A stretch of 64,000 nucleotides of DNA, from the IMG/VR virus record IMGVR_UViG_2891442665_000011; one strand, given 5' to 3'. The notes under the pieces are model-generated. The model had not been told where the DNA came from and ran no database searches. It saw only the letters and a list, made by a program, of their open reading frames with translations. The translations under genes and the position numbers were made by a program. Shown here in pieces: positions 3,711 through 63,457 of this stretch (position 1 is its first letter; each line of letters starts with the position of its first letter). The DNA is from an uncultured virus (IMG/VR IMGVR_UViG_2891442665_000011) (Duplodnaviria > Heunggongvirae > Uroviricota > Caudoviricetes).

Positions 3711-3819
3711 AATTATTCACCGTGATAGCAATACTTACCGTAGTAAATTGCGTCCAGCTTTGTCATTTATCCTTGATGGAAAGGACAACGTCTCCTTCTC
3801 AGTTGGTTAGACAGAGAAT

Positions 3820-3908
3820 CCGGACGAACCCCGTTAGAGTTCGAAGCGTTGTTGTAGTTCGTATTGTCATTGCTGTTCACATTGGCGAAATTAGCCGAAG
3901 AAACGACG
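3820..3908 (-). repeat. DGR template repeat (TR)
   Basis: AAC/AAT-rich non-coding 89-nt segment between avd and RT; differs from 4991-5079 and 53902-53988 only at TR adenines. Confidence 0.97.
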
Positions 3909-4867: not shown

Positions 4868-4898
4868 TTTGATTCTTCCTTTCACTTAATTTTTTACT

Positions 4899-4949: not shown

Positions 4950-4966
4950 GGGGGCACGAGGCCCCC
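4950..4966. other. DGR target-recognition hairpin downstream of VR1
   Basis: GGGGGC-ACGAG-GCCCCC, 4 nt after the target stop codon. Confidence 0.8.
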
Positions 4967-8892: not shown

Positions 8893-9807
8893 CTATACCC
8901 CCTCATAAATGATTCGATTCTCTATCTTGAACTGTAAATTACTGCTTCCTTCTTCTGCCGTATACGCAAACACGTTGTCACCTTTTGCAAGCTGAAACCA
9001 GTCAGCTTCTTTATCCAGGCAGTTTAGAATATTGGTTGTTTTTCCGTTTCGGAGAAGGGTAATTGACTTTTTCCCTTTGACGGTACAGATAGTGATTTCA
9101 TCGCCCGCCACAATTCCGGAACCCGTAAAAGCCTTCATCTTGTCAGTGTCGATACGCATAACCTCACGGGTTCCAGTATTGTATATGGTGATGTTTCGTG
9201 CTTCACCGATGGCATGAATTGTAATCGTCACACCAATCTCAGCATCTCCGCTGTACACAACTGTTTTTTCCATCTGATTCTGGATCTCGCCCATTTCCAG
9301 CAAGCATTCATACAGAGATTCGTTGCTGAAAGGAAATTCAAACAACGGCTCCACACCATAGAAAATAGTAGTATTAACCCCATCTTCCCCGGCAGAGTAA
9401 AAGAAAGGATTCGGACATACAATGGAGACATCCGAACCCTCATCTTTACTGAATATATCCGGTTCATTCGATTCGGTATATCCGTCAATTTCTGCTGAAC
9501 GGTTGTCCGTTTCAATCAGCAGCGTAAGTTTTTTCTTTATCGGAAAATACTTATACGATAACTGACGCACATCCTCAATCGAATCTTTCCAAAGATACTT
9601 CAAGGAAATGACTATGTTCCGTTTCTGGAGTCTGGCAGAATTGAACAAATCCCCGTCATTTGTAGCAATTTCGGTGGTATTGATGTTCGCCTTTCCAGAC
9701 CCCAGACCGGTTACAGAGGTAACTACGAAACCGGATTCCTCCGGCCTCGCAAGTACCAGTTTAATACTATCGCCAAGATAGTTTGTCACGGTGATTGACT
9801 TAATCAC
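8893..9807 (-). CDS. Distal tail protein (Dit)
   Basis: Directly after the tape measure; C-terminal WFQLAKGDN. Confidence 0.75.
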   Translation of the reverse strand: MIKSITVTNYLGDSIKLVLARPEESGFVVTSVTGLGSGKANINTTEIATNDGDLFNSARLQKRNIVISLKYLWKDSIEDVRQLSYKYFPIKKKLTLLIETDNRSAEIDGYTESNEPDIFSKDEGSDVSIVCPNPFFYSAGEDGVNTTIFYGVEPLFEFPFSNESLYECLLEMGEIQNQMEKTVVYSGDAEIGVTITIHAIGEARNITIYNTGTREVMRIDTDKMKAFTGSGIVAGDEITICTVKGKKSITLLRNGKTTNILNCLDKEADWFQLAKGDNVFAYTAEEGSSNLQFKIENRIIYEGV

Positions 9808-20411: not shown

Positions 20412-20732
20412 TTATTCATAAATAATTTCAAGTCCGTAAGCTTTAGCAGCTTCGTGTTCCAGCTTACATCCTCTCGCGTTTTCCCAACCCTTACAAAAAT
20501 ACGCTGCGTGACAAAGCGACATATTTTCAAGACTTTTGGCGAGAAAGCAAAGCGGAATTTGTTCTACACCCCGTTCGACCATTTTTTCGTTGCTATACCA
20601 CTCATCTGTAAAAAGAGTGTTGATGATCGTATAACCTCGTTCTTCTAATGTCTTAATCGCCTTTTCTCTTGTAGCGATGATCTCCTCCTCTGTCTTACCA
20701 GCCATAGGCTGAGACAACATGGCTTTCTTCAT
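20412..20732 (-). CDS. DUF4406-like / nucleoside-deoxyribosyltransferase-fold protein
   Basis: MLSQPMAG...GWENARGCKLEH..A..YG. Confidence 0.65.
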   Translation of the reverse strand: MKKAMLSQPMAGKTEEEIIATREKAIKTLEERGYTIINTLFTDEWYSNEKMVERGVEQIPLCFLAKSLENMSLCHAAYFCKGWENARGCKLEHEAAKAYGLEIIYE

Positions 20733-41547: not shown

Positions 41548-42012
41548 TCAACTTTCCTCGTTGTAGTCGTTGGTCCATCTCTTAATCTTGTTAAAATAGC
41601 TGCCCTTATTACCCAACGCTTTCTTTGCGATAGCCATCGCCAGACCCTTCTCCGGATCGAAGTCTTCATTTTTTGCCTTTACTACTGTCTTGGTGCCGTC
41701 TGCCCAGAAGACAATGGTTACTGGATTGTTGAAGATGACTTTCTTGATCTCCAGTGCCATTTTTCTATGCAGTTCCGCAGTACCGAACACATCGTTCACC
41801 GCATATTTAAAAGCATCAAGACGATTCTCCGCCTCCGTTGCCCTCCGGTTCGCTTTGCTGATTTCAGTGGCAGCATACATCAATTCCGGCTTATCAGTAT
41901 CGGCTGCGTATACATAACCGCCTCTCATGTCACCAATCAGCTTCTGATTCGGAGAGTTGATCAATCCCTCCATGGTTTTCATAAACTCGCGTGCGTTCAT
42001 TTCCTTGCTCAT
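41548..42012 (-). CDS. Hypothetical phage protein
   Basis: TIVFWADGTKTVVK...FDPEKG. Confidence 0.65.
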   Translation of the reverse strand: MSKEMNAREFMKTMEGLINSPNQKLIGDMRGGYVYAADTDKPELMYAATEISKANRRATEAENRLDAFKYAVNDVFGTAELHRKMALEIKKVIFNNPVTIVFWADGTKTVVKAKNEDFDPEKGLAMAIAKKALGNKGSYFNKIKRWTNDYNEES

Positions 42013-43668: not shown

Positions 43669-46600
43669 TTAAAATGGTAAATATTCTTCATTGGGATTGT
43701 CTTCCGGCGGATTCATGGAATGGCTCATAATCACATCCGAAATATCGTACCCAAGGTTACAGTCCATATGGAACTTGTCGTTATGGAAGTTCGGACAATC
43801 AAAGCACGTCGCATATTTCATTTCCCCGCAAGGCGGCATCCACGATGGAACCTCGGAATCAACATCAGCGTCGTTGGCACCAAGCTCCTTAATATACGGG
43901 TCGTCGGAAACAAACCATTCGAAATCGCCATACTCCGAAATAGTCTTAACTGCATCATCAACTAACTTGTCATAATAGCTGCGGTCGATATCATCTTGCT
44001 TGTCCAACTCCCGAACCATTTCCGATTCCAGCCACCTGTATCCTTTTGAACCAGTAGCGGCGTAGTATCTTCCATTTTTCTCCCGCATTAAGAGTCCGCC
44101 GCCGCACCCGTCCTTGATAGGGCAGAACTGTCCGATTTTTCCGATGAAACGATAGCAGTGCCCATCAGCAATAATCTTTCCAAGTCTTTCAAATTCCTGA
44201 CATTCATCAGTCATCGGATCTTCGAGTTTTGATACATCGCTAAGTTCTTTTAGCAACTTTGCGTATTGCTTTTCTTCTTCAGACACATCTGGCAGCCCTT
44301 CGTTCATATCCAAATATAAAGCGCTACTTACAGATTTGGTCTCGCACATATCCTCGAAAGCAATATCTTCTCCACTGAAAAGTTTCTTGAACACATAAGG
44401 AACTGCAAACTGGGTACCGGTAGCTGTCCATTCGCCGGCGTGCTTACCATCTTTGTACTTGGCAATATAGACCGCGTCATTCACCAAGCACATCCGGTCG
44501 TATGTAGCCTCGTGCTCAAATGTGTACCCATACCGTTTACCATAATCCATAACAAACTGGATAATTTCCGGCGTAGCGTCAGGAATCTTGATAGAATCTG
44601 TCTTGATATGGGCAACAGTAAAGCCCCGTTCCTGCACCTCATGTTTGAGGTTAATCATGAACAGAGCTCCTCGTTTAGCTACAATATTGTCTTTGTTTCT
44701 CGGATCGCGGAATGCGTTCTCGAAAGAGGCAGAAGTAAGGCCGTAAACCGAATTGATTGCTGTCTTCAGAGCATCAGCAAGCTGCTTGGATGTCATTTCA
44801 CCGTCAATTACTTTCTGGATATACGGTGTGAGCTTTCCATCCAGCATCGTATTGACAATATCCCATGCTTCATGCTTGATGCTTACACGCCCTTCGACAA
44901 TATCCCGAAATGCTCTTGTGAATTTCACGCCGAATAGGACTTCTGCGATTGCGCTGTGTGGATGCATTGAGGAAACGTCCAGCAACGCCACATTCCCATA
45001 CATCCCAGGTTCGGCATAGACATACCCGCCTTCGCCGACTTCTTCGTCGCGGTAAGTGGATTTTCCATTTTCGAACTTGTAACCAGGAAAATATGGAAGA
45101 AAACTGCCTGCTTCACCGTGAGTTCGTTCCATCATCTCCGGACACGCTTCAGCAAGGAATGAATATGTTTCCTCGTCCAAATCATGCACCGGTTCTGCCA
45201 GATTACGGTAGTGGAACTGATCCTGCGGCTTTCGGTTATTTCCAAATATAATTCTGGTAGTTAGGCTGTTCGTCGTGTCGTTGACGGTCATATCCGCCAA
45301 ATCCGCCAGAATCTGCCTTGCCGTCCAATCCGCTTTCAAGTAAACAAAAGACGCCTCGGTAGCAATTACATCGTTATCACAGTATTCGGCAACCTTTGTC
45401 CAAAGTTCTTCCGGTACAGGTTGATCCCACGGTAAGCCAAGCTCCTGGTGATGGGTTCCCGCTTTGATGATTCTAATTTCGTCATCGGAAAACCCTTTCT
45501 TTTTCAGCTCCTTTTCTGTGACATTTCCCATTTCGATTTCCAACTTCTTCAGGCTTTTTTTGTTTCCGGCAGAAGCGAAGTCATAAACGTCTGTATAACT
45601 GACATTGTAGGCTTCTCCGAAGAAACAATTTGCGCTGCCATTGATAATTTTCTGGGACAGATTATAGAGCTGCTCGTTTGAATATCCCATAAGCCGGGCG
45701 TACAGAATATGATTGTCATACCTGCGGCAATTAAATCCAACTAAACGGAACCTCATTAAGTCCTCTATCTCAGATGGCGTCGGGTTAATCATCCGTACAA
45801 CCGGCTTTCCCTCACCTTCGATTTTCCAGTTTACAAGAAACAGGTTGGGAAAGACCTCAACGTCATAAAATATCAGTTTCGCATTCTCATTTTTCACGGC
45901 TGTGGACGTGTCGGCAGATTTAAACTGCATCTTGTTTACCAACTTGATACAGTAATCAGCCTGATGAGAACTGTTCGCTGCAAATGCCAATACTGCATTC
46001 CTCATATCCGTGACATCATATTTTAAGTCACTGGAATATGCATCCTCCAGTATTTTGTAAATAAAGTCGATACTGGGCTTAGTACCCGGATGAATCTCTT
46101 TGTTGAGATTACGTTTTATCAGTGTTCTAAGCCCTTTCTCGCTTTGAACTGCTTCAAAATTTACCATTTTATTTTCTCCTTTCAGCGGTAAACCAGAGCT
46201 AATTGTCGCGATAGGCAGGTTGTTGCATTTCGACACTTTTCGTCTTAATGAACTGTTGCCTGTGAACACCTTAACTTCTACATGGTCATCATAAATGCGG
46301 CTCAGTCTTGCCGGATCTCCCGTATAAATATAATGCAGATGCACTCCGCATCCGCTTTTACTGAGTTCCGCATAAGTTGGCGGCCATTTACTTGCTTCTT
46401 CTACATTCCTTTCAAAAGATTTATTTCCCTCCTCGTCCGGAATATCAAAATCAATTACGATATGGTTTTCGGGAACCTTGACATAGTGTAATTGTGAAGT
46501 ATCCAAAGAGGCCAAGGTTGTTTTGACATTCGCCCACTTTTTCCCAGGCGTACCAGCATCTGTTCCGTATTGGGCCGGGCAGGTTTCACATTCCTTGTCG

Positions 46601-47976
46601 AAAACAGATTCCTGCTCTTTGAACTCGATGGATGTTGGTTTTGTTTCCGCATTTTCACCTGCCGGATTTTTTTCGGTTTCAAATTTCTCAGTCCGGAATC
46701 CGGAATAGTAACTGCGAACCCGCGAACCATCTTCAAGATTGAACCGTTCCTTGTAGTCCCGAAAATAGTTTTTCAATTCCTCCTTAAAGATTCTTTGGGA
46801 GAATGGAAAAGACACCTTTGCTTCATCACAGTAGGTCTTGTACATCTCCCATGCCGCTTTCATTGTCGTTCCGTCTTCTTTTTTGAACACATGGTACGAA
46901 TCAACAATGAAGTTATAGAAATCATTGGACGCCCCAAGCATAGCAATCGGAATATAATCGTCATACATACCCGGAGTGGATAAATATACTTCCTGACAGT
47001 GATACGCAATCGCCCCCAGTTCAAATCCAACCCGTTTTACAATATCCTTGTAATCGTTAGGATTCAGTTTGTTGCCTGTTGGCGAAACGTCTATCAATCT
47101 CCGAATCAAACCGGACTTCGCGTCTGTAATCTTCACCGGCTTATTTGTTCCCATAAAGAGAAAGCACTTGAATCGGTTGGCGTAGGTCGATTTGAACTTT
47201 TCGTTCACCGTCATAAGTTCATGAGAAACCAGACTGTTAAGCCTTGTGTTATCTTCAATTCTGGACAGGTCGCCGTCATGCTGAATCGCCACAAGAGGGT
47301 TGCTTTTAAATGCCTCCAACGCAAAAGAATTACTGGATGACCCCAGTGCTTTTGCGTCGAATACTGAGTAATACCCTTCAAAAAGCTGCTGGATGATGTT
47401 CAGGACTGTGGATTTACCTGTTCCTGCGGCTCCATATAACACCATGAATTTCTGCAACCGTTTGGATTCTCCTGACACAATCGACCCAATCGCCCATTCA
47501 ATCTTCCGTCGTTCTTCCTCGGAATATAAAGTTGACATCAGCTTTTCGTAGGCAGACAAATCGCCAGCTTCAAGCGGATAATTCAGCTTTTTACTGGCGT
47601 AATCTTTTTTATTGGTCTCTGTGTTGAAAAAAATAAGTTTTTCATCCAGCATGTGGAATGAGTCCCGCATCTGCTTTTGGCAATACTTATGCCAGGAGTC
47701 AATCATGCCTGATTCTGCATCCCACATATGCAGGACTTTTATGTCGGAGTCAAAGCGCCGGCGGTTTTCTTCTGCATATCTATCCAGTTCGCGGTCAATG
47801 AGCTGCAAAGCATCCTGCTCGTCCGTAGACCATAAACCACGTTCCTCAATCCAGATAGCGTAGAAGTCACCACCTCGAATCATCAGATCGGAGCTTTTTT
47901 TAATAATGAACTTCGGATAGATTTCTATTACACCACGCTTTGTACTACGTGTTGAAATCATCAAAAAGTCGATCAT
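43669..47976 (-). CDS. SF3 helicase - primase - 3'-5' exonuclease - family B DNA polymerase fusion
   Basis: GAAGTGKST; SKSGCGVHLHY (prim-pol-like); YDVEVF, FNCRRYD, YCDND (exo); DVSSMHP, KTAINSVYG, KTDS (PolB A/B/C-like). Confidence 0.85.
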   Translation of the reverse strand: MIDFLMISTRSTKRGVIEIYPKFIIKKSSDLMIRGGDFYAIWIEERGLWSTDEQDALQLIDRELDRYAEENRRRFDSDIKVLHMWDAESGMIDSWHKYCQKQMRDSFHMLDEKLIFFNTETNKKDYASKKLNYPLEAGDLSAYEKLMSTLYSEEERRKIEWAIGSIVSGESKRLQKFMVLYGAAGTGKSTVLNIIQQLFEGYYSVFDAKALGSSSNSFALEAFKSNPLVAIQHDGDLSRIEDNTRLNSLVSHELMTVNEKFKSTYANRFKCFLFMGTNKPVKITDAKSGLIRRLIDVSPTGNKLNPNDYKDIVKRVGFELGAIAYHCQEVYLSTPGMYDDYIPIAMLGASNDFYNFIVDSYHVFKKEDGTTMKAAWEMYKTYCDEAKVSFPFSQRIFKEELKNYFRDYKERFNLEDGSRVRSYYSGFRTEKFETEKNPAGENAETKPTSIEFKEQESVFDKECETCPAQYGTDAGTPGKKWANVKTTLASLDTSQLHYVKVPENHIVIDFDIPDEEGNKSFERNVEEASKWPPTYAELSKSGCGVHLHYIYTGDPARLSRIYDDHVEVKVFTGNSSLRRKVSKCNNLPIATISSGLPLKGENKMVNFEAVQSEKGLRTLIKRNLNKEIHPGTKPSIDFIYKILEDAYSSDLKYDVTDMRNAVLAFAANSSHQADYCIKLVNKMQFKSADTSTAVKNENAKLIFYDVEVFPNLFLVNWKIEGEGKPVVRMINPTPSEIEDLMRFRLVGFNCRRYDNHILYARLMGYSNEQLYNLSQKIINGSANCFFGEAYNVSYTDVYDFASAGNKKSLKKLEIEMGNVTEKELKKKGFSDDEIRIIKAGTHHQELGLPWDQPVPEELWTKVAEYCDNDVIATEASFVYLKADWTARQILADLADMTVNDTTNSLTTRIIFGNNRKPQDQFHYRNLAEPVHDLDEETYSFLAEACPEMMERTHGEAGSFLPYFPGYKFENGKSTYRDEEVGEGGYVYAEPGMYGNVALLDVSSMHPHSAIAEVLFGVKFTRAFRDIVEGRVSIKHEAWDIVNTMLDGKLTPYIQKVIDGEMTSKQLADALKTAINSVYGLTSASFENAFRDPRNKDNIVAKRGALFMINLKHEVQERGFTVAHIKTDSIKIPDATPEIIQFVMDYGKRYGYTFEHEATYDRMCLVNDAVYIAKYKDGKHAGEWTATGTQFAVPYVFKKLFSGEDIAFEDMCETKSVSSALYLDMNEGLPDVSEEEKQYAKLLKELSDVSKLEDPMTDECQEFERLGKIIADGHCYRFIGKIGQFCPIKDGCGGGLLMREKNGRYYAATGSKGYRWLESEMVRELDKQDDIDRSYYDKLVDDAVKTISEYGDFEWFVSDDPYIKELGANDADVDSEVPSWMPPCGEMKYATCFDCPNFHNDKFHMDCNLGYDISDVIMSHSMNPPEDNPNEEYLPF

Positions 47977-49884: not shown

Positions 49885-50436
49885 TCATTCATAACTTGAA
49901 AAATAGTGGTGTTCTACTTGGAACATGGGAACGCCGTAATCGCTGTAACAGCCAGCGGTAAAGAATATAACATCGTAGTTTGTCCGAACTTCCAGTTCTT
50001 CTTTGACAAGCTGACAAATATCATCCCTCACCTCGCAGCGGTCTACACGTCCGTTCCACATTGAGGAAAACTGATATGGTTGATAGATAACATCGTAAAC
50101 CGTATCGGGAAAATGCTCCGAATCCATGCGATTGAGTATGGTGTCGATTACCAATCGCTTTCCTTTTTCGCATTCTCCTTCTGCCTCTGCCATCGTTACC
50201 AATGCTATCAGCGAAATATCTTCCTCTGATAAAAGTTCTTCCTCTGCAATTTCTTCTGCGCTTGACTCTGAAATATCCTCTATCGGAATATAAGTAACCA
50301 CCGGCATAGATACCGGAGTGATTTCTATTGCCTGTGAATCAGCAGAGATTTCACTTCCGGCAGAGTGCGTAGTGATTGAAAATATCAGAATCACGCACAA
50401 AGAAAAAGCTGAAGCTATTACAGTTATTTTTTTCAT
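49885..50436 (-). CDS. SleB/Hydrolase_2-type cell wall hydrolase
   Basis: Signal peptide; AEAEGE...GK..V..ILNR...FPDT...VIYQPYQFS. Confidence 0.8.
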   Translation of the reverse strand: MKKITVIASAFSLCVILIFSITTHSAGSEISADSQAIEITPVSMPVVTYIPIEDISESSAEEIAEEELLSEEDISLIALVTMAEAEGECEKGKRLVIDTILNRMDSEHFPDTVYDVIYQPYQFSSMWNGRVDRCEVRDDICQLVKEELEVRTNYDVIFFTAGCYSDYGVPMFQVEHHYFSSYE

Positions 50437-50554
50437 GTACGTCTCCTTAAAAATATCCGGCTGCCCTCCGCCAGTCTTTTGAACCGAGCCAAGGGCAGTC
50501 TGCCATATCCCGATAGGGATTCCCTGTGCCAACGCTATCCAATCCATCCGTCAG

Positions 50555-51520
50555 TCACATCAGTTCCCAGATGTTTCCGTCCACGTTGAAATCCAAAAGA
50601 ATGGCCGGCTCAAAACCATTCGCAAAATCGGAATAACTCAGATTGTCCGCATACAAACCGAAGTCAACATAGTTGTCGCCGATAGGATGCTCTGCATCAT
50701 AAACCCATCCAACAACCTGACCGGCTTTTGTCGGAGGCAGCCCCAGCATGTCGTAAACATCGTTCAAGAAAAGGCGTTTCTTTGCCCTGAGCAAATCGTT
50801 GGCGTACTTTTCCTGTGCTTTCAGGAACATCAGATTGTACTCGTTGTTGCTTTCCCAGTGAGGGTTCAGGACGCTGTTTCCGTCTTCGTCCATCGTGTAC
50901 TTCTCAAAGAATCGGGCGTATCCGCTTACATCGGACGGGTTGACAACGAAAGCGGTTTTCTTCACTTTCTTTTCTTTGCCGGTTTCCTCATCGATAACGG
51001 TCTCGCTTACCTTCTCCGCTTTGATATTGTATTTAAGCTCCCGGTCGATCTCCTTGCCGAAGCGCTCAATAACCCGTTTCCGATATTCCTTGAAACTCTT
51101 ATCCACAGTTGCATAAGCCGCAGCCAGAGCGACATTCCTTTTCCGAAGAATATTGTTCGATGCCAAAATGCTGGTGATAGATAACGCGCCAAGAGCCACA
51201 GCGGGAGCATACAGCTTGGCGAGTTTAACTCCGGTCTGAAGATAAACAACAGACAGGTCTTTCTTGGAATCCTCAATGGAGTAGTCTTCGCCAGCCTTGG
51301 TGACTCCCTTTTCTGTCGCATCGTGAATCTCGTCCACATCGTTCTTCGTCTTGTCGATGATTTTTCCGACCTTCGTTGTTGCCCGGCACGCCATAACCGT
51401 ACTCGCTACCGTTCCGACGATACCTGCCACAATGAGAATCTCCGGGCTGTGTTTTTTCAACTGAAAGCCGACTTTATTGAAAGTTCCGCTTACCTTCGTC
51501 ATGATTTCTTCTTTTTTCAT
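50555..51520 (-). CDS. DUF6353-like protein, paralog 1
   Basis: KKHSPEIL...LAAAY...LNDVY..LG. Confidence 0.7.
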   Translation of the reverse strand: MKKEEIMTKVSGTFNKVGFQLKKHSPEILIVAGIVGTVASTVMACRATTKVGKIIDKTKNDVDEIHDATEKGVTKAGEDYSIEDSKKDLSVVYLQTGVKLAKLYAPAVALGALSITSILASNNILRKRNVALAAAYATVDKSFKEYRKRVIERFGKEIDRELKYNIKAEKVSETVIDEETGKEKKVKKTAFVVNPSDVSGYARFFEKYTMDEDGNSVLNPHWESNNEYNLMFLKAQEKYANDLLRAKKRLFLNDVYDMLGLPPTKAGQVVGWVYDAEHPIGDNYVDFGLYADNLSYSDFANGFEPAILLDFNVDGNIWELM

Positions 51521-51787: not shown

Positions 51788-52408
51788 CTAATTCAGCGGA
51801 AGCGCTTTAGGCAGCTTAAGAATATAACCGTCTCTTACCCGAACGGGCTTGCATCCGCTGATATCTGTCCAGCCGTACTTATTCACGGCATAGTTGTTTG
51901 TTGATACATCAGCCAAATCATACAAATCGCCAACGCTGACCACTCCATACTGGCTGATAATGTCGTTCATAGCATCGAGAACTGACTCAGCGTCCCCACG
52001 GGTTTCAAATATAATGTCGTCGTAATCATACCCGCCCCTCGTCCCCGCTGAACGATAATCCCTCCTCCGGTCAGAATCCCGGTCATAGAATTTTCCGTAA
52101 GATACCTTGGATGCTGTCGAGTTTTTCTTGGTACGTCCTGTTTCACCGTAAAGAATCATGTCAATTCCGTTCGTCACAATATCTGAGATTGCTTTCTTTA
52201 CCGCAGGTACCAAAACCTCCATAATGATATAGGATTTGACATTCCCGACATCCTCGGAAATAAAGACATCGGCAAACTTCTGCATTTCACCTTTCTTTTT
52301 TGATTTGGCAGAGCCGGTGATTACTTTCCCTACTTTTTTCTCAGGTAAAGCATCGGATTCTCGCTGTTCTTCTTTGGATTTATGAGAATTCGGCTTGTAT
52401 TCTTCCAT
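51788..52408 (-). CDS. Hypothetical phage protein
   Basis: AAAGGAGA RBS; VSVGDLYDL..YGW. Confidence 0.65.
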   Translation of the reverse strand: MEEYKPNSHKSKEEQRESDALPEKKVGKVITGSAKSKKKGEMQKFADVFISEDVGNVKSYIIMEVLVPAVKKAISDIVTNGIDMILYGETGRTKKNSTASKVSYGKFYDRDSDRRRDYRSAGTRGGYDYDDIIFETRGDAESVLDAMNDIISQYGVVSVGDLYDLADVSTNNYAVNKYGWTDISGCKPVRVRDGYILKLPKALPLN

Positions 52409-53032: not shown

Positions 53033-53803
53033 TTAACCGTTGCTGAAATCGTATCTCGGAGCGATGTGATACTCAATTACAAGGCAAGGCGTTCCGTCGT
53101 CAGCCAATTGCGAGCTGAATGACACATCAATATACCCTTGGTCAATGTTCCAGCCGAGTTCATCTCCGATGGAAGTCCCGTTCAAACCGATTTCGTAATA
53201 GAACTCGTTCAGAGAAATATACATCTCATCCCGCATCCGTAAGTTAAGCTCATTGACAGCCTTCTTTATCTTCTCGATATCGGACTTAAAATATCGCCCG
53301 GACACAGTATCGAAGCAGAGAGTGTTTCCACGCTCAAGAATAACCACCTCACGATTGCTTACCGGATTCTTCTCGATTTTATCCTTAGCAACCGCATCCC
53401 GGATTCCCTGTTCTTTTTTCTCTCCGATGGTTTCCACCACTTTTTCCTGATACTCTTTCAAAGCCGATTCCGAAAGTGTATAAGCCGTAGCAAGCGCCGC
53501 TCTGCGCCGTATATTTACTGAACTGGCTCCGATTAAACAGGCTATTGAAACAGTTCCGATAACAGCCGTTGGAATGTAACAAGCCCACGCAGCCTGAACG
53601 GTTTCTTTCGGTGTGAGATCGTTTACCTCCAGCTCGTCCTTCCTTTCTTCAATGAGAATTAGAGCTTTTGGTGTAGCCCGGACCGCCATCACGGTTGTTG
53701 TAATCATCCCGGCAATCCCGATACCGGTTAGAATTTCCGGACTGTGTTTTTTCACGGCAGTTCGCATGTTTCGGATAGCTGCCGCTATTGTTTTTTTGTC
53801 CAT
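53033..53803 (-). CDS. DUF6353-like protein, paralog 2
   Basis: KKHSPEILTGIG...SLNEFY..IG; start at MDKK with AAAGGAGA RBS. Confidence 0.7.
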   Translation of the reverse strand: MDKKTIAAAIRNMRTAVKKHSPEILTGIGIAGMITTTVMAVRATPKALILIEERKDELEVNDLTPKETVQAAWACYIPTAVIGTVSIACLIGASSVNIRRRAALATAYTLSESALKEYQEKVVETIGEKKEQGIRDAVAKDKIEKNPVSNREVVILERGNTLCFDTVSGRYFKSDIEKIKKAVNELNLRMRDEMYISLNEFYYEIGLNGTSIGDELGWNIDQGYIDVSFSSQLADDGTPCLVIEYHIAPRYDFSNG

Positions 53804-53862
53804 CGATGTTCTCCTTTCGAATCTGGTCGCACATAAGCGCATCCCCTTTCTAAAATATAAAA

Positions 53863-53879
53863 CCGCCCACAAGGGGCGG
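53863..53879. other. DGR target-recognition hairpin downstream of VR2
   Basis: CCGCCC-ACAAG-GGGCGG, 3 nt after the stop codon. Confidence 0.8.
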
Positions 53880-53882
53880 CGA

Positions 53883-54431
53883 TTATTTAACCAACCAGAA
53901 CTCCGGACGAACCCCGCCAGAGGCCGAAGCGCCGTAGTAGTCCGCAACGTCACGGCTGCCCACAACGGCGAAATGAGCCGAAGAAACGCTCCTCTTGGTT
54001 GCATTGCGAAGCCACCACCAGCACCAGTCATCCTTAAAATCGCAGACTCTGTTTCCGCGCCGCTTCATAAGCTCGAACTGCTCATCGTTATCCGGCTCAA
54101 AGTTTTCGTAAAAATCGTCGTGACCGAAAATCTCCCCGTATGTAGGAAGCGTAATCTCACGAATTTTGGTTCTCAGCTTTTCCGGAAATGACGGAAGAAC
54201 CGTTTCGCGGAGCCACCTGCACATATCCGATTTGTCGAAACCGCCCTCATTGGTGTTGGTCTCATTCATCGGATGCCGGGCGATAACATCGTCAAACAGG
54301 AAAAGAATTCCCTTGTCCGTCACTCTCTGAGCCGTGGCCGTAAACTTTCCGAAGCCGCTCAGCCTCACCGTAATCTGATCTCCTACACAAATTTCGTTTG
54401 TCTTGAACAGCACCTTTCTTGCTACCTTCAT
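53883..54431 (-). CDS. DGR target 2: stand-alone C-type-lectin-like (DUF6273-like) protein in the early region
   Basis: MNETNTNEGG...LP...WWWLR...GVRP shared with target 1; contains VR2. Confidence 0.9.
   Translation of the reverse strand: MKVARKVLFKTNEICVGDQITVRLSGFGKFTATAQRVTDKGILFLFDDVIARHPMNETNTNEGGFDKSDMCRWLRETVLPSFPEKLRTKIREITLPTYGEIFGHDDFYENFEPDNDEQFELMKRRGNRVCDFKDDWCWWWLRNATKRSVSSAHFAVVGSRDVADYYGASASGGVRPEFWLVK
53902..53988 (-). repeat. DGR variable repeat 2 (VR2)
   Basis: 18 mismatches to TR, all at TR adenines. Confidence 0.96.
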
Positions 54432-54460: not shown

Positions 54461-54766
54461 TTATTTCAAACATCTTGTAATTTCCAAGATGTCTGTTGCT
54501 ATTTCATAGGCAACATTAAATATCTGCCTGTCTCTTTTATCAGCGTGGTCTTTCATAGAAAATTCTCGTGTCTTTGTTGCGAAGTCCGAAATGATATCAA
54601 TTGGGTCTTGTTCCGGATTTTTGCGAATACAATTCAAGAGTTCGTTTCCAGCCCATCGTTGATAACTAACTTCCTTGAACCAATGCTTATCCCAACTTCG
54701 TTGTGGTTCTGTGAAATCGAAAATATAATCCTCAATAATCAAAATAACCTGTTCATACTTAGACAT
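54461..54766 (-). CDS. Hypothetical protein
   Basis: GGGGAG RBS. Confidence 0.6.
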   Translation of the reverse strand: MSKYEQVILIIEDYIFDFTEPQRSWDKHWFKEVSYQRWAGNELLNCIRKNPEQDPIDIISDFATKTREFSMKDHADKRDRQIFNVAYEIATDILEITRCLK

Positions 54767-55018: not shown

Positions 55019-55795
55019 CTAAGAAATATCCAATTTCCCATCAAATTTGTTAGGGTCCCAGACAGCGGATATCACACAACATTCCAAACCGTCTTCCATC
55101 ACAGTGCGATGATTTTCAAAGTCAAGCCACATAATTCCACCTTCCATAAGATCGTCCATAGCCCAGGCTATTTCATCTCCGTATTTGATTCCGTCAAGAC
55201 CAAGGAAATCATAGAACTCATTTATAGTTGTATAGCCTCGAAGTTGAAGATTTCGATTTATATGATACTGAGCGTTCACTATGGCGGCCATTGTTGCAGT
55301 AAAATATCTCTTGGAAAACATGTCATAACAAAGAATTTTTTCGCTTTCCGAGTCCATATCCGCCGAATAGACACCTAACCCGTCAGCCGAAATATAGGTT
55401 TCTTTAGCTATTTCAGCATGGATTTTGTTATCAGCATCTTCGCCATAAACTTTTTTGGCTGCTTGTTGGTACTGCTTGTAGGATTCGTTAAGCATAGCGT
55501 ATGCGCTCGTCAAAGCCGCCTGATTGCGCTTGTCCATTACACCAATACCAACAATACACGTAACGGTGCCAATACCTATCAAGACTGACGGAATATAACA
55601 TTGCCAAGTCGTCTGTACAAGTTCCATAGGTGTAAGCTTATCCGTTTCCAGCTCATCTTTCTTGGCTTTAATAAGCCGCAATGCTTTAGGTGTTGCTCGT
55701 ACTGCCGTTACAGCCGTACCAACAACGCCGACGATTCCTAAAGCAGTTAGGATTGTCGGGGATGATCGTCGCAACCCCATTGTAAATTTGCCCAT
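55019..55795 (-). CDS. DUF6353-like protein, paralog 3
   Basis: SSPTILTALG...AVRATPKA...TINEFY..LG. Confidence 0.7.
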   Translation of the reverse strand: MGKFTMGLRRSSPTILTALGIVGVVGTAVTAVRATPKALRLIKAKKDELETDKLTPMELVQTTWQCYIPSVLIGIGTVTCIVGIGVMDKRNQAALTSAYAMLNESYKQYQQAAKKVYGEDADNKIHAEIAKETYISADGLGVYSADMDSESEKILCYDMFSKRYFTATMAAIVNAQYHINRNLQLRGYTTINEFYDFLGLDGIKYGDEIAWAMDDLMEGGIMWLDFENHRTVMEDGLECCVISAVWDPNKFDGKLDIS

Positions 55796-55854: not shown

Positions 55855-55926
55855 GAGAAGCAGATAGGACTCGAACCTATAACTTCCACGGGTGTGTGGC
55901 GCTCTACCAATTGAGCTACTGTCTCT
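55855..55926 (-). tRNA. tRNA-like element with a degenerate anticodon arm
   Basis: TAGCTCAATTGGTAGAGC D-arm; ATAGG-TTCGAGT-CCTAT T-arm; anticodon arm only CCAC-ACACCC-GTGG; acceptor stem has an A-C mismatch; no CCA. Confidence 0.65.
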
Positions 55927-55981
55927 CCATAATATAACCTGTAAATTTCGCGTAAAAAGAAAAAGAGCCGTTGTTAGCGGC

Positions 55982-56149
55982 TCACTTCCTTCGCTTGATA
56001 ATGTATCTAATAATGATAACTATTAGACCGATACATATAATCACATCACCAAACATCAGTATAAATACTATTCCACATGTTCCAATCGTGAAAATAGCAC
56101 ATACACTAAATACCAGTAACAGAATCAATAACACCGTAAATAATATCAT
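55982..56149 (-). CDS. 55-aa hydrophobic membrane protein cassette
   Basis: Motif at 56167-56192; terminator at 55954-55983. Confidence 0.7.
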   Translation of the reverse strand: MILFTVLLILLLVFSVCAIFTIGTCGIVFILMFGDVIICIGLIVIIIRYIIKRRK

Positions 56150-56228
56150 ATCGTTACACCATCCTTTCATAATACGCAATGTAAATATCGCGCAAAAAGA
56201 AAGAGCCCTTGTTAGGACTCCACTCCTG

Positions 56229-56369
56229 TTAAAAATAGTGTTCTTTCGGTATACCGTTCCATCCTTCGATCTGGTTAATTTCTTTCCCAATTTGTTTCAG
56301 CATTCTTACGATTTTAAACTGCGTCCCCAAAATAAGAATCCCCGTAACCAATAAAATAATAGTAAGCAT
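56229..56369 (-). CDS. 46-aa membrane peptide cassette (not in the ORF track)
   Basis: MLTIILLVTGILILGTQFK...; AAGGAGG RBS; motif at 56394-56419. Confidence 0.6.
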   Translation of the reverse strand: MLTIILLVTGILILGTQFKIVRMLKQIGKEINQIEGWNGIPKEHYF

Positions 56370-56466
56370 ACTTTCATCCTCCTTCTATTTTTTTCATAAA
56401 AGAAGTTGTATTTTATGCGAAGAAAAAAGAGAACCCGTTTAAACGCATTCCCTTTTTACATTTTTG

Positions 56467-56544
56467 CTAATCGTTGGTATCGTTTCTACCTTTTATCAGA
56501 ATTAACACCCCAATCAAAATCAGTGCACATCCTAATAAAGTCAT
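56467..56544 (-). CDS. 25-aa hydrophobic peptide cassette (not in the ORF track)
   Basis: MTLLGCALILIGVLILIKGRNDTND; motif at 56562-56587. Confidence 0.5.
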   Translation of the reverse strand: MTLLGCALILIGVLILIKGRNDTND

Positions 56545-56606
56545 AACTCTTCACCATCCTTTCATAATACGCAATGTAAATATCGCGCAAAAAGAAAGAG
56601 CCCTTG

Positions 56607-60903: not shown

Positions 60904-60960
60904 TACTAATGGCAAATCAACAGAAACTCTGAGATTTGTCAAGAAAGGAGTGAGCGCACC

Positions 60961-62199
60961 ATGCTGATGCAATGTCCCGAATGCCAACTGCAAGTAAGCG
61001 ATAAGGCAACATACTGTCCTCATTGTGGCTATCCGATGCAGCCAGACATAAAACCAAGAAAGCCTCGCAAATCCAACAAGCGAAGAAGACTGCCAAATGG
61101 ATTCGGACAGATAAGTGAAATCAAAGGAAGAAATCTTCGAAATCCATTTCGAGCTATGGTTACAGTTGGAAAAACTCCGACTGGACGGCCTATTTGTAAG
61201 CCACTCAAACCGGAGTCATACTTTCCCACTTATAATGATGCCTATGCTGCTTTGGTAGAATATAACAAGAATCCGTATGATTTAGAGCCAGCCATAACAG
61301 CGAAAGAACTCTATGAAAAATGGACAGAAGAATATTTCAAGACTCTGAAGAACGATGCGAGTGCGAGGGCCGTTACCTCTGCCTGGGCTTATTGCTCATC
61401 TGTCTACGATATGCGGGTAATGGACATTCGGGCGCGCCATGTAAAAGGCTGTATGGAAGAAGGAATAGCTGTAGTTAGGGGGAAAGAGCAGCGGCCTAGT
61501 GCGTCCATGAAAAATAAAATTAAATCTCTGTTCAACCTTATGTTGGATTATGCTTTGGAATATGAGATTGTTGACCGTAACTACTCCAGAAGTTTCAATC
61601 TGACGGAAGAAACCATCAAAGAAATCCAGACCGTTAAAAAGGAACACATCCCGTTTACGGATGAAGAAATTGCATTGCTTTGGGAACATGTGGATGATAA
61701 ACGGTATGTTGACGCAATCCTGATTCAATGCTATTCTGGATGGAGACCGCAGGAACTTGGATTGATACGGTTGGAAGATGTTGATTTGGAGAATTGGACT
61801 TTCAAAGGCGGTATGAAAACAGATGCCGGTACCGATAGGGTTGTTCCGATTCATTCAAAGATACAGTCGCTAGTGCTCAGAAAATATAAAGAGGCAGAAT
61901 CCCTGGGGAGCGAATTCCTTTTCAATTGCACCGATCCGGACAGAAACCGGAAAAATATAAAGTTCACGTACAACCGGTATCAAAAGGGATTTACAAGAAT
62001 CCGTGATGAGCTGAAGTTGAATCCAGACCATAGACCACATGACGGACGAAAACATTTCGTAAGTATGGCAAAAAAATATGGCATCGATGAATACGCCATC
62101 AAATATATGGTCGGACATAAGATTTCTGACATCACTGAAAAAGTGTACACAGCAAGAGAGTTTGACTGGCTGCGAGAGGAAATAGAAAAAATAAAATAG
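60961..62199 (+). CDS. int: Tyrosine recombinase (phage integrase) with N-terminal zinc ribbon
   Basis: SGWRPQEL, K in MKT, HDGR, VGH, terminal VY; CPEC/CPHC at the N-terminus. Confidence 0.93.
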   Translation: MLMQCPECQLQVSDKATYCPHCGYPMQPDIKPRKPRKSNKRRRLPNGFGQISEIKGRNLRNPFRAMVTVGKTPTGRPICKPLKPESYFPTYNDAYAALVEYNKNPYDLEPAITAKELYEKWTEEYFKTLKNDASARAVTSAWAYCSSVYDMRVMDIRARHVKGCMEEGIAVVRGKEQRPSASMKNKIKSLFNLMLDYALEYEIVDRNYSRSFNLTEETIKEIQTVKKEHIPFTDEEIALLWEHVDDKRYVDAILIQCYSGWRPQELGLIRLEDVDLENWTFKGGMKTDAGTDRVVPIHSKIQSLVLRKYKEAESLGSEFLFNCTDPDRNRKNIKFTYNRYQKGFTRIRDELKLNPDHRPHDGRKHFVSMAKKYGIDEYAIKYMVGHKISDITEKVYTAREFDWLREEIEKIK

Positions 62200-62512
62200 A
62201 ATGTCTTTTGTGTAGGAATGTTGGTATAGGAGTGGTGCAGGAATAATATATGATTTACATACATTTCCCTGCTTTTTACCACTTCTAACCGCTTTTAAAA
62301 GTATTGATTTTACTGGTTTTTTCGCAAGTAGTCAGCTTAGGAAGTTTTTATTTTACAATTATAACTGTATTAGTTATAATAATAATTAAAACAGTTGTAT
62401 TTATAGCTAAATCGCCACAGAGAAAAATTTTTTCGTTGGTTTTCAACTGCGTCAATGGTTGTCTACCTTGTTTGCTATACTACTATACTATAGGTAAGGG
62501 GGCGGAGCTGCG

Positions 62513-63457
62513 ATGGAAAATCTGACGGAGGCGAAGTCCTCACGACTTCTGGTCATCTATTCCCGCTTGGTAAAGGGAGAAACCGTATCCAAAGCTGATT
62601 TGAGTGAGCAATACCATGTATCGGAGCGGAGCATACAACGAGATATGGAGGCCCTGCGTTGCTTTATTTCCAATCAGTCTTTGGGACAGGATATTGTCTA
62701 CGACTACAAGCTGCGAGGTTATCGGCTGGTGAACGATCTGTCCAAAGGGTTAAGCAACAGCGAGGTTTTGGCTGTTTGCAAAATCCTTTTGGAAAGCCGC
62801 TCTATGCGAAGGGATGAAATGCTGCCGATTTTGGACAAGCTAATCGACTGCGCCGTGCCGGAAGAAAACCGCCGTGCAGTAGTAGAGCTGATTTCAAACG
62901 AAAAGCACCATTACATAGAGCCGCACCATGGCAAACCTATTTTGAAGGGACTGTGGGAGTTTGGACAGGCTATCAAGCATCATCAGTACATGGAGATTGA
63001 GTATGAACGGATAAAAGGGCCAAAGTGTGTACATCGGCGAATAAAGCCAGTCGGCATCATGTTTTCCGAGTATTATTTTTACCTCACAGCCTTTTTAGAG
63101 GATAAGACCGATTTTGAAAACCCGGACGATCTGTTTCCCACCATTTACCGCATCGACCGCATCCGTTCTTTTCAAGTGCTGGACGAGCACTTTTATGTGC
63201 CATACAGAGACCGTTTTGAGGAAGGGGAGTTTCGCAAACGGGTACAGTTTATGTACGGCGGAAGGTTGGAACGGATCAGGTTTCGCTACACTGGACCATC
63301 CGTGGAGGCAGTGCTGGACCGGCTGCCTACTGCGGAGATTGTCAGTACAGACAAGGAAGGGTGGACGATTCAGGCAGAAGTATTCGGCAAGGGGGTTGAG
63401 ATGTGGCTGAGGAGCCAGGGAGACTATGTTCAAATCATGCGGGAGGATACGCAATGA
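62513..63457 (+). CDS. WYL-domain transcriptional regulator (HTH-WYL)
   Basis: VSERSIQRD HTH; YFYL..., YRIDRI. Confidence 0.88.
   Translation: MENLTEAKSSRLLVIYSRLVKGETVSKADLSEQYHVSERSIQRDMEALRCFISNQSLGQDIVYDYKLRGYRLVNDLSKGLSNSEVLAVCKILLESRSMRRDEMLPILDKLIDCAVPEENRRAVVELISNEKHHYIEPHHGKPILKGLWEFGQAIKHHQYMEIEYERIKGPKCVHRRIKPVGIMFSEYYFYLTAFLEDKTDFENPDDLFPTIYRIDRIRSFQVLDEHFYVPYRDRFEEGEFRKRVQFMYGGRLERIRFRYTGPSVEAVLDRLPTAEIVSTDKEGWTIQAEVFGKGVEMWLRSQGDYVQIMREDTQ

Follow-up and report, generated by a model that had tools for sequence, protein, structure and literature searches.

A remote small lectin-fold gene as second target of the DGR in a mouse-gut prophage

The locus described here raises the question of whether the 3' end of a small gene lying far from a DGR cassette is a second variable repeat of that cassette and, if so, what the protein encoded by this gene does. 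The window, by which is meant the whole stretch of 64,000 nucleotides that was analysed, represents a prophage of about 62 kb from a mouse-gut bacterium, a relative of Faecalibacterium phage FP_oengus, and the nearest provirus record (G002) maps to window positions ~369-62540. The features of interest are collected in Table 1.

Table 1. Positions of the DGR components, the second target and its neighbours in the window
Feature	Position	Strand	Description
DGR reverse transcriptase (RT), 398 aa	2514..3710	-	PHROG phrog_1423 E 7.8e-63; Pfam RVT_1 E 3.8e-17
Template repeat (TR)	3819..3908	-	between Avd and RT; 25 adenines in 90 nt; matches VR1 over 90 nt, VR2 over 87 nt
Avd accessory protein, 164 aa	3913..4407	-	PHROG phrog_3206 'Avd protein of DGR' E 7.5e-14
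Hairpin after VR1	4950..4966	-	6 G-C pairs, 5-nt loop CTCGT
VR1 target ('large' target), 326 aa	4971..5951	-	directly after tail genes; VR1 = 4990-5079
Cell-wall hydrolase (Hydrolase_2)	49885..50547	-	Pfam; closes the early block
phrog_4079 early protein	51788..52408	-	C-terminal domain fused to small-target domain in other phages (P0133, P0153)
DUF6353 membrane protein	53033..53806	-	Pfam DUF6353; two hydrophobic segments near N-terminus (translation)
Hairpin after VR2	53862..53880	-	7 pairs (6 G-C), 5-nt loop CTTGT, then T-run; z -3.47
VR-specific 3' motif (IMH-like)	53883..53901	-	reaches into stop codon; 3' of 14-nt G+C-rich block
VR2 target ('small' target), 182 aa	53883..54431	-	single DUF6273 / C-type-lectin-fold protein; Pfam DUF6273 E 4.3e-13; PHROG phrog_21980 E 1.8e-67
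VR2	53902..53988	-	87 nt, residues 148-176; 18 A-only differences from TR; hypervariable among relatives at adenine-templated sites only
Conserved 101-aa ORF	54461..54766	-	phrog_10740; directly upstream of small target
Tyrosine integrase	60961..62196	+	PHROG phrog_1 E 1.8e-42, Pfam Phage_integrase; prophage end nearest VR2

The DGR of the prophage is complete, comprising the VR1 target, Avd, the TR and the RT. The RT translation contains an I-G-x-x-x-S-Q motif, a mark of DGR RTs, together with YMDD, and in NCBIfam the protein has only sub-threshold matches to group II/Drt RTs. The TR sits 108 nt upstream of the RT and in frame provides ten AAY codons, whilst Avd has no match in Pfam or NCBIfam. 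In VR1, 19 of the 25 TR adenines are altered and there are no non-adenine mismatches over 90 nt. The large target is 50% identical over 70% of its length to ORF23 of Lactobacillus phage JCL1032, a protein annotated as a structural/tail fiber protein, and its C-terminal half aligns with the small target (28% identity, E 9e-11). The system belongs to the same mechanism family as the DGR of Bordetella phage BPP-1 (Mtd, Avd, TR, Brt), which is characterised by adenine-specific mutagenic homing from TR to VR, by a C-terminal variable face on a C-type-lectin fold, and by a G+C-rich end and a hairpin at the target. BPP-1 has one target, adjoining the cassette, and this protein, Mtd, carries N-terminal tail-fibre modules. 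The window DGR, in contrast, has two targets, the smaller of which is without N-terminal modules of the Mtd type.

The second repeat was identified through its match to the TR. On the minus strand, positions 53988..53902 align with TR 3905..3819 over 87 nt without gaps, at an offset of 50083, and the two differ at 18 places (A>G 12, A>C 3, A>T 3); 18 of the 25 TR adenines are altered and there are no non-adenine mismatches. Re-alignment thus returned the same counts as an earlier, sequence-only reading of this DNA. The alignment which that reading placed at TR 3820-3908 is real, but its ends were off by 1-3 nt, the aligned part of the TR being 3819-3905; the remaining three bases, TR 3906-3908, match VR1 and not VR2. 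VR2 is also, as had been claimed, distinct from VR1, with 20 differing positions across TR 3812-3908. Both strands of the window were scanned with the 90-nt TR as query, scored on its 65 non-adenine positions only. The TR itself and VR1 gave 0 mismatches and VR2 gave three, at its three 5' bases, whereas the next best site had 32 of 65 (background mean 49.4, sd 3.7). Because the background at its best has 32/65 mismatches, chance is excluded as the source of the match between VR2 and the TR. The search for further VRs took in the window and the relatives G001-G004. VR1 and VR2 both show A-only differences from the same TR. The proposal of one RT and one TR serving two targets is borne out, and the 3' end of gene 53883-54431 is almost certainly a genuine second variable repeat of this DGR.

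Comparison with relatives adds a record of change at this site. Provirus G002, with flanks 99% identical to the window, and a prophage in G001 (96%) are laid out alike, yet their VR2 alleles are not the same; pairwise comparison gives 14-16 differences, 13-14 of them at TR-adenine positions. A SNP at position 25 of the G001 TR recurs in both VR1 and VR2 of G001. Across 41 homologues of the small target (84-93% identity) column entropy averages 1.23 bits within the VR versus 0.12 outside it, and the ten columns above 2.5 bits are all accounted for by the ten AAY codons of the TR. Nine IMG/VR loci hold eight distinct VR2 alleles. Loci L018 and L026 each have two copies of the small target, and L026 has its own TR, the private SNPs of which are repeated in both early-region VRs of that locus. 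Four runs were compared at the level of contigs, and in DNA run X2 the contig spanning VR2 carries 13 differences (counted per contig, not by position) against 0 in five other long contigs. Polymorphism at the A positions of VR2, on which the sequence-only reading depended, is therefore present among relatives and confined to adenine-templated sites, and these comparisons indicate that VR2 is under active DGR rewriting in natural populations. The RT makes cDNA from TR RNA with the adenines miscopied, and this cDNA takes the place of VR2 as it does of VR1. An origin of the VR2/TR similarity outside the DGR, be it by chance, by ordinary paralogy or through gene conversion involving two lectin genes, is refuted and has practically no probability left. 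All 18 of the 18 differences fall at template adenines, where the window background has at least 32/65 mismatches, relatives vary at adenine-templated sites only, and SNPs of the TR reappear as copies in the VRs. Moreover, the homologous VR2 of Roseburia phage Shimadzu has been shown experimentally to undergo DGR-type rewriting, the available portion of the report by Cornuault et al. describing reads with DGR-type changes in both Shimadzu VRs (bioRxiv 10.1101/575076).

VR2 carries the same predicted recognition elements as VR1, with the hairpin at the same spacing (24 nt from hairpin start to the end of the G+C-rich homology block at VR1, 22 nt at VR2). A 14-nt G+C-rich block at the 3' end is common to the TR, VR1 and VR2. 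On the 3' side of this block VR1 and VR2 agree at 14 of 20 bases, including GGTTGGTT, whereas the TR agrees with VR2 at only nine of the same 20. The hairpin that had been attributed to VR2 was found, and with its seven pairs, six of them G-C, it stands first among the listed terminator-like sites in 49.5-61 kb. One relative has lost the stop codon of the small-target gene, so that the hairpin lies inside the reading frame and hence persists where a terminator role for the gene is impossible. By sequence, the G+C-rich block, the VR-only motif and the hairpin are present at both VRs and in relatives.

Remote from the structural genes, the small target is encoded in the interval from the DNA polymerase (43669-47976) to the integrase, and gene order in this integrase-proximal region agrees with its earlier placement among early genes. 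The TR-VR2 distance of about 50 kb given by the sequence-only reading stands for the integrated prophage only, since the provirus spans window ~369-62540 and its ends are joined in the circular phage, where the figure becomes about 12 kb (range about 9-12 kb). An ORF of 98-101 aa is found at the same place as the conserved upstream ORF in three relatives (L025, L030, L034). Three DUF6353 paralogs flank the small target (53033-53806, 55019-55795 and 50555-51520; Pfam E 3e-88, 4.5e-67 and 2e-84), and DUF6353 neighbours are also found in L025-L030; a literature search on DUF6353 found no paper. The cell-wall hydrolase gene likewise follows the block in L027 and L030. A likeness seen by eye between the C-terminal domains of the phrog_4079 and DUF6353 proteins ('S-x-x-D/E-x-Y') was rejected as a sign of homology, with an hhalign probability of 0.33% and E 0.18. 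In the ESM Atlas, the product of window 41551-42012 and the phrog_4079 C-terminus matched only viral clusters without names. PADLOC was run on 21 proteins (18 from the early region, 41551-42012, 4562-4885 and a WYL protein) and gave no matches save the WYL protein, which is encoded just outside the prophage; in this search the early region yielded no match to a known defence family. Megablast of window 48-58 kb against GenBank phages gave no match. Contigs from RNA libraries of three studies cover the small-target gene and all of 45-57 kb alike and derive from relatives, and for both reasons they are mute on timing or lysogenic expression.

The novelty that the sequence-only reading implied for a remote small second target is not borne out, as this layout is already in print. 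DGRs with a remote small DUF6273 target are described, in the accessible text of the respective reports, for Shimadzu (orf43), Toutatis (gp24) and Lelie/CP11 (bioRxiv 10.1101/575076; bioRxiv 10.1101/2024.10.15.618418; PMC11792537), and a 2025 Nature paper noted distal VRs near counter-defence genes and suggested a link. The window represents a new FP_oengus-like siphovirus lineage within this published pattern, in which a tail-side adhesin is combined with a small free DUF6273 protein. In the five lineages surveyed, which are not a systematic sample (the window phage, Fontainebleau, Shimadzu, Toutatis and G003), the small-target gene lies in the early/replication module and the DGR cassette beside tail genes, with different TRs. 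In their 3' tails the homologous small targets likewise differ from the TR of the same phage at adenines only.

The nearest named relative of the small target is a hypothetical protein (9330-9899) of Acutalibacter phage Fontainebleau (ON453893.1), with 41.3% identity over 99%, and the same phage provides the nearest named relative of the large target (41.5% identity). In Fontainebleau the small-target gene is flanked by DNA polymerase I and a helicase, and over 88 nt its tail departs from the TR of this phage at 15 positions, all of them TR adenines. Fontainebleau is, however, a 39-kb siphovirus, compared with the window prophage of ~62 kb. When the family members P0143 and P0220 were compared with GenBank phages by tblastn, only Fontainebleau was retrieved, and no loci related to P0220 were found. 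Shimadzu orf43 is also a DUF6273 protein (Pfam), with 37.6% identity over 46% of the query in tblastn (E 4e-6). Its 3' end likewise forms a VR, which over 111 nt departs from the Shimadzu TR at 15 positions, all of them TR adenines, and a G+C hairpin comes next. Within the early module the gene has a methyltransferase on one side and Erf on the other, and a cell wall hydrolase is nearby; a stretch of ~14 kb that includes the integrase separates it from the TR. Unlike the window phage, Shimadzu is a Roseburia myovirus with another TR sequence, and orf43, at 210 aa as against 182 aa, overlaps the DNA methyltransferase gene. DUF6353 neighbours were seen in none of two Shimadzu records, and the control genomes were likewise without signal.

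FP_Toutatis also encodes its second DUF6273 target, gp24, far from the TR and in the early region, between a repressor and a replication initiator, and the gp24 VR shows 13 A-only differences from its own TR in 100 nt. The distance from TR to second target is 17,480 nt by the count its authors give in the available part of their preprint (bioRxiv 10.1101/2024.10.15.618418), and adenine-specific variation among cognate genomes at both VRs is described in excerpts of two reports (bioRxiv 10.1101/2024.10.15.618418; PMC11792537). A '3D domain' protein lies near the small target of Toutatis, where the window has the cell-wall hydrolase. Toutatis differs in being a myovirus, in having its VR end ~120 nt before the stop codon and in its first target, a Hoc-like/tentaclin protein downstream of the RT; the window small target has no tblastn match in Toutatis at E 1e-5. 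Further counterparts are nd4_tgt2 and nd12_tgt2 of gut myophages, which the accessible sections of Baykov et al. 2023 present as single-domain DUF6273 C-type-lectin proteins that share a TR with a first target and whose 3' VR folds into a beta-hairpin (PMC10743442). By the same account they differ from the window protein in being encoded inside the cassette and in having 234-294 aa with flanking helices. In the same sections they are read as Mtd-like receptor binders, Mtd itself having its lectin domain joined to the tail fibre by N-terminal beta-prism and beta-sandwich modules (PMC10743442).

A structure model of the small target was obtained from a 78-sequence alignment with a pLDDT of 97, an earlier shallow alignment of 19 sequences having given 64. 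Compared with solved structures by VIA-align, the model is closest to the DUF6273 domain of an IgA peptidase (9qa6, Z 15.1), followed by the DGR variable protein TvpA (2y3c, Z 8.2), a Bacteroides tip pilin (4eps, Z 7.7) and, at Z 6-7, numerous C-type lectin domains. A Foldseek search of the PDB returned a single match at E<=0.001, again 9qa6, and the lectin fold emerged only with VIA-align. The model consists of one domain, residues ~13-182, with nothing preceding it, and strands 153-157, 163-167 and 171-174 at its C-terminus carry the ten AAY-templated residues. Translation and model contain no signal peptide, transmembrane segment or attachment domain, and the beta-prism and beta-sandwich modules by which Mtd is attached to the tail fibre are absent from the model. 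The earlier description of a stand-alone 182-aa lectin-like domain with the VR at its C-terminus, and without signal peptide or fibre stalk, is therefore upheld by both the DUF6273 match and the C-type-lectin fold.

The wider DUF6273 family was examined through 150 listed representatives. Of these, 99 stand alone, none of which has a hydrophobic N-terminus in a crude test, and 35 have extensions of at least 60 aa. Early or cytoplasmic-type domains are carried by nine of the 35, in counts that rest on gene calls from metagenomes: the phrog_4079 C-terminus in two (P0133, P0153), the DUF6353 C-terminus in one, the domain of window gene 41548-42012, which lies beside the helicase, in four (one shared with the phrog_4079 group), a deoxyribosyltransferase-like domain in one and an HTH regulator in two. 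One of the 35 (P0146) is fused to the tail-protein domain phrog_376, and 25 have extensions without a recognisable family. At least six giant multi-repeat proteins are found among the listed relatives, and the best solved match, 9qa6, is the N-terminal domain of an IgA peptidase that is secreted and anchored to the wall, both of which indicate that the DUF6273 family as a whole often works outside the cell.

On a slight balance of probability, the small protein is a DGR-diversified, free and soluble binder from the early module that likely acts on a variable partner inside the cell. That it is not a built-in part of the virion has about an even chance of being correct. This is argued from its lack of a signal peptide, transmembrane segment or attachment domain, from the position of the gene in the early/replication module in five lineages with the cassette beside tail genes, and from the mostly early or cytoplasmic types of extra domain in the family. 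An intracellular role is plausible from the gene position and the domain fusions; within the infected or lysogenic cell the protein would bind a variable partner, for example a host defence protein or a protein of a rival phage. The published reading is a different one. The accessible parts of the reports on nd4/nd12 tgt2 and Toutatis gp24 (PMC10743442; bioRxiv 10.1101/2024.10.15.618418) treat such proteins as receptor binders, and the authors of four papers, in the text available, take small targets of this kind as receptor-binding proteins. The small protein would accordingly be a virion-associated or adsorption-related Mtd-like receptor-binding protein, and thus a second, independently evolving adhesin, docked non-covalently on the tail or capsid or released at lysis, with its ligand on the host or gut surface and its gene merely lying outside the structural module. 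The protein has the fold of the DGR adhesins, as the matches to TvpA and the tip pilin illustrate, it shares with the tail-side target a TR that tunes both, DUF6273 domains are known in secreted surface proteins, and P0146 provides a fusion to a tail-protein domain. However, the window protein is a single domain from residue 1, with no adhesin-type module, stalk or signal peptide. Its gene keeps to the early module in five lineages although the cassettes sit by tail genes, and fusions run 9 to 1 in favour of early or cytoplasmic-type domains, HTH regulators included. Moreover, the small target of Toutatis is described in the available part of its report as a core gene, kept even without a DGR (bioRxiv 10.1101/2024.10.15.618418). 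On this evidence a receptor-binding role is possible but rather unlikely.

VR2 could also be a collateral target, having gained its recognition elements when the lectin-fold module was duplicated, in which case the variability would have no selected role or the protein would function independently of its variable face. The C-terminal module shared by the small and large targets is in keeping with this, the paired copies in L018 and L026 point to easy duplication, and the retention of the gene by Toutatis phages without a DGR, as given in the portion of the report at hand, could be understood in the same way (bioRxiv 10.1101/2024.10.15.618418). Yet none of the 41 close homologues, heavily rewritten as they are, has lost the reading frame or the fold, and the non-templated positions are nearly invariant, their 0.12 bits indicating purifying selection on the scaffold. 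Five divergent phage lineages that differ in TR sequence, moreover, show the same arrangement, and a collateral origin is accordingly improbable.

A broader proposal, advanced tentatively and as something short of probable, is that temperate gut phages use one DGR both for host recognition and for a hypermutating cytoplasmic lectin-fold binder, giving adaptive counter-defence or superinfection exclusion. Such a binder would be expressed together with the early genes and might work alongside the membrane-anchored DUF6353 and the phrog_4079 proteins; changes in its variable face would redirect it to intracellular partners that themselves change quickly, for instance defence proteins of the host or parts of rival phages. 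If the small protein does act intracellularly, DGRs would have a part in the arms race between phage and host that goes beyond the recognition of receptors. The 2025 Nature paper hints at such a role without testing it, and what is added here is the conserved early-module position in five lineages, the short distance in the circular form and the mainly early or cytoplasmic types of fusion. The prophage family may be a practical experimental system, since it is common in mouse-gut data: in 20 of the 24 listed runs, drawn from 16 studies, at least half of the sampled words are present.

In the small target, the second variable repeat (VR2, 53988..53902 on the coding strand) aligns without gaps over 87 nt with the template repeat (TR, 3905..3819), and all 18 differences lie at TR adenines (12 G, 3 C and 3 T), with 18 of the 25 adenines altered. 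This origin from the TR with A-only mismatches had been proposed in the sequence-only reading, whose repeat coordinates are correct to within 1–3 nt on realignment. The VR1 of the large target carries 19 A-only differences in 90 nt. A scan of both strands of the window, scored at the 65 non-adenine TR positions only, returned the TR, VR1 (0 mismatches) and VR2 (3 mismatches, all in the first three bases, which are outside the VR2 homology), and no other place in the window fell below 32 mismatches (mean 49.4, sd 3.7).

Judged from its alleles, VR2 is evidently undergoing rewriting in nature. The provirus G002 (flanks 99% identical) and the G001 prophage (96%) have the layout of the window yet contain different VR2 alleles, and the pairwise differences number 14–16, of which 13–14 are at TR-adenine positions. 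The A-restricted polymorphism whose absence was to count against a second target is thus present among the relatives. The G001 TR has a C-to-T change at position 25 that recurs in both VR1 and VR2 of G001, which shows TR transfer to both targets after the lineages split; in the related locus L026, private base changes of its own TR recur in both of its early-region VRs. The window lineage has 8 distinct VR2 alleles in 9 IMG/VR loci. When the window protein is aligned with 40 close metagenomic homologues (84–93% identical), the mean column entropy is 1.23 bits in residues 148–177 and 0.12 bits elsewhere, and the 10 columns that exceed 2.5 bits, each with 9–14 residue types, coincide exactly with the ten AAY codons of the TR. 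In the DNA sequencing run X2, the contig spanning VR2 has 13 differences from the window, against 0 in the five other long contigs.

TR position 42 (~3867) is A in the window and G in G002 and G001, and therefore the template also drifts at adenine positions. The loci L018 (6373 and 8310) and L026 (7527 and 10441) each have two small early-region DUF6273 genes, and every such gene ends in a VR that has a hairpin of its own; at least three DGR targets are therefore present in these phages.

The nearest virus record, G002 (62,157 bases), has 93% of sampled words in common with the window and maps to ~369–62540; in essence the window is thus a single prophage, flanked by short stretches of host DNA. 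Nearly all genes are on the minus strand. The integrase heads the gene order. After it come small early genes, then the primase-polymerase, which has 59.5% identity with its counterpart in Faecalibacterium phage FP_oengus, and then helicase and terminase, portal, head and tail genes. The 2282-aa tape measure and the distal tail proteins are next, and the DGR cassette and lysis genes complete the order. Public runs containing the early region are mostly mouse-gut metagenomes, with at least half of the words found in 20 of the 24 rows listed, from 16 studies. The separation of about 50 kb between TR and VR2, as originally read, holds for the integrated prophage only; 3.4 kb separate the cassette from one prophage end and 8.6 kb separate VR2 from the opposite end, which puts the two ~12 kb apart in the circular phage, with lysis genes, attachment site and integrase between them. 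Two contigs with the junction intact confirm this order, namely G003 (TR 5688–5776, VR2 15029–15117; 9.3 kb apart) and L026 (TR at 593, ahead of its two VRs).

Coordinates of the DGR repeats, their targets and other features of the window
Feature	Position	Strand	Remark
TR	3819-3908	-	template repeat
VR1	4990-5079		in large target
Large target	4971-5951	-	326 aa
Endolysin	17018-18616	-	532 aa
Deoxyribosyltransferase-like gene	20412-20732	-	
phrog_4291 protein	30133-32835	-	900 aa
Gene beside helicase	41548-42012		
Primase-polymerase	43669-47976	-	after small early genes
DUF6353 paralog	50555-51520		
phrog_4079 gene	51788-52408		
DUF6353 paralog	53033-53806		
Small target	53883-54431	-	182 aa, DUF6273
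VR2	53902-53988		in small target
Repeated stem-loop	54790-54813	-	between early genes
DUF6353 paralog	55019-55795		
tRNA-like gene	55855-55925	-	
Stretch skipped by contigs	55917-56573		
Repeated stem-loop	56202-56221	-	between early genes
Repeated stem-loop	57781-57810	-	between early genes
Repeated stem-loop	60235-60254	-	between early genes
Tyrosine integrase	60961-62196	+	heads gene order
WYL/HTH regulator	62513-63457	+	

A 14-nt G+C-rich block at the 3' end of the homology is common to TR, VR1 and VR2. Past this block VR1 equals VR2 at 14 of 20 bases, GGTTGGTT among them, whereas TR and VR2 are identical at only 9 of 20, as would be expected if the VRs carried an IMH (the VR-specific 3' motif) and the TR a different sequence. 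A hairpin of 6–7 pairs with a 5-nt loop comes after each VR and begins 22 nt (VR2) or 24 nt (VR1) past the block. The loop is CTCGT after VR1 and CTTGT after VR2, where the hairpin already ascribed to VR2 has 7 pairs, 6 of them G-C, and with the T-run that follows is the first-listed terminator-like site in 49.5–61 kb. In L030/G003 the small gene has lost its stop codon, and the hairpin, which there lies inside the reading frame, is kept although it cannot serve as the terminator of that gene. This retention fits a role of the VR2 hairpin in target recognition.

The stop-loss lineage (L030 7001–7858, which is G003, and the family representatives P0132, P0134 and P0138) continues through the translated hairpin into a coiled-coil-like tail of ~100 aa. 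Separate ORFs occupy the place of this tail, as likened by position, in L026 (10590–10871, 93 aa) and L027 (10627–10947, 106 aa), and an ORF of this kind is absent from the window. Terminator-like sites number 27 in 49.5–61 kb against 8.6 expected from shuffles, and a near-identical stem-loop (GGAGTCCTAACA..GG.CTC and a T-run) recurs between early genes; it may act in the early operon as a repeated terminator or regulatory element.

The small target is assigned to DUF6273 in Pfam (E 4.3e-13) and, in PHROG, to the unknown-function family 21980 (E 1.8e-67). Its model (pLDDT 97, from a 78-sequence alignment) is a single domain from residue ~13 to 182, with VR2 on strands 153–157, 163–167 and 171–174. 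Compared with 48,161 chains by VIA-align, the model matches best the DUF6273 N-terminal domain of the Thomasclavelia IgA peptidase (9qa6; Z 15.1, 154 residues, rmsd 2.2), followed by the C-terminal domain of Legionella Lcl (Z 8.6), the Treponema DGR variable protein TvpA (2y3c; Z 8.2), a Bacteroides tip pilin (4eps; Z 7.7) and dozens of C-type lectin domains (Z 6–7). The description as a stand-alone lectin-like domain lacking a signal peptide or stalk is borne out. The large target has only the C-terminal module in common with the small target (28% identity, E 9e-11); its match to a Lactobacillus phage protein with a structural/tail fiber annotation is at 50% identity.

Second targets of this kind have been published. 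Roseburia phage Shimadzu has a second VR in orf43, described as 'of unknown function', with DGR-type changes in ~2% of virion reads at both VRs, both of which were mutated in 5/5 isolates from mice (10.1101/575076). The Faecalibacterium phages Lelie and CP11 each carry two DUF6273 targets, a 'large' and a 'small' one, and CP11 shows adenine-specific variation at both VRs among 37 cognate genomes (PMC11792537). In Toutatisvirus the second DUF6273 target lies 17,480 nt from the TR; 98.8% of phages carry this core gene, whose product is interpreted as a receptor binder (10.1101/2024.10.15.618418). In nd4 and nd12, the tgt2 proteins consist of a single DUF6273 domain and are interpreted as Mtd-like (PMC10743442). 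The window layout therefore joins an already described pattern, and the arms-race reading has likewise been floated in print. By tblastn the window protein is 41.3% identical to that of Fontainebleau (99% coverage) and 37.6% to Shimadzu orf43 (46% coverage). Compared with their own TRs, the small-gene tails have 15 A-only differences in 111 nt (Shimadzu), 15 in 88 nt (Fontainebleau), 14 in 67 nt (G003) and 13 in 100 nt (Toutatis gp24). In all four the gene is in the early/replication module, between DNA polymerase I and helicase in Fontainebleau, methyltransferase and Erf in Shimadzu, and repressor and replication initiator in Toutatis; the early block of G003 is identical in kind to that of the window.

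Whether the small target acts outside the virion is evenly poised in our judgement; if so, its role is probably intracellular. Its place among early genes, as first reported, is within the early block between integrase and polymerase. This early-module position is constant in five lineages, with the cassettes beside tail genes, and within the lineage of the window the block order is conserved, consisting of a DUF6353 membrane protein, a 101-aa ORF, the small target, 1–3 further DUF6353 paralogs and a cell-wall hydrolase. The protein also lacks a signal peptide, a membrane segment and an attachment module. Against this, a receptor-binding role is preferred by four author groups, secreted surface proteins occur in the wider DUF6273 family, and a PADLOC scan revealed no defence-related family near the gene. 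The first two of these favour a virion component or adhesin, which we regard as possible but doubtful. That VR2 is a collateral target appears improbable.

The domain fusions of the family point the same way as the non-virion, intracellular role, although they are unverified metagenomic gene calls, which counts against that role. A profile search gave 2126 clusters at E<=0.001, and the 150 listed representatives comprise 99 stand-alone proteins (a hydrophobic N-terminus in 0/99 by a crude test), 23 with N-terminal and 12 with C-terminal extensions of at least 60 aa, 6 giant repeat proteins and 10 fragments. Among the 35 extended representatives of those listed, 9 have early/cytoplasmic-type domains, 1 has a tail-protein domain (P0146), and for the remaining 25 no family is recognisable. 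The fused domains include the C-terminus of phrog_4079 (P0133, P0153) and of DUF6353 (P0160), the domain of the window gene beside the helicase (P0153, P0157, P0181, P0202), a deoxyribosyltransferase-like domain (P0144) and HTH regulators (P0179, P0190).

The three DUF6353 paralogs of the window lie in one early block, each having two hydrophobic segments at the N-terminus and a soluble C-terminal portion. With at least 7998 proteins at E<=1e-10 the family is very large, and a literature search found no mention of it. Between early genes is a tRNA-like gene with an anticodon uncalled by ARAGORN; RNA-library and other contigs in two runs skip 55917–56573, so its neighbourhood varies among relatives. 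In the RNA library X17 a contig over the integrase (60953–62351) has a depth of 237 against ~33 for the remaining early region, which hints at most at strong transcription of the integrase region or at a shared element, contig depth being a poor measure.

Elsewhere, the WYL/HTH regulator crosses the inferred prophage end (~62540), starting just inside, and matches the PADLOC 'CAS associated signaling' WYL models (E 1.2e-20). The 900-aa protein, with a C-terminal HTH, matches phrog_4291 at E 0, whose label 'RNA-dependent RNA polymerase' is surprising in a dsDNA siphovirus. The endolysin is within the tail module upstream of the tape measure, residues 471–514 of which form a short endolysin-like stretch, and the deoxyribosyltransferase-like gene is flanked by those for the major tail protein and tail terminator.
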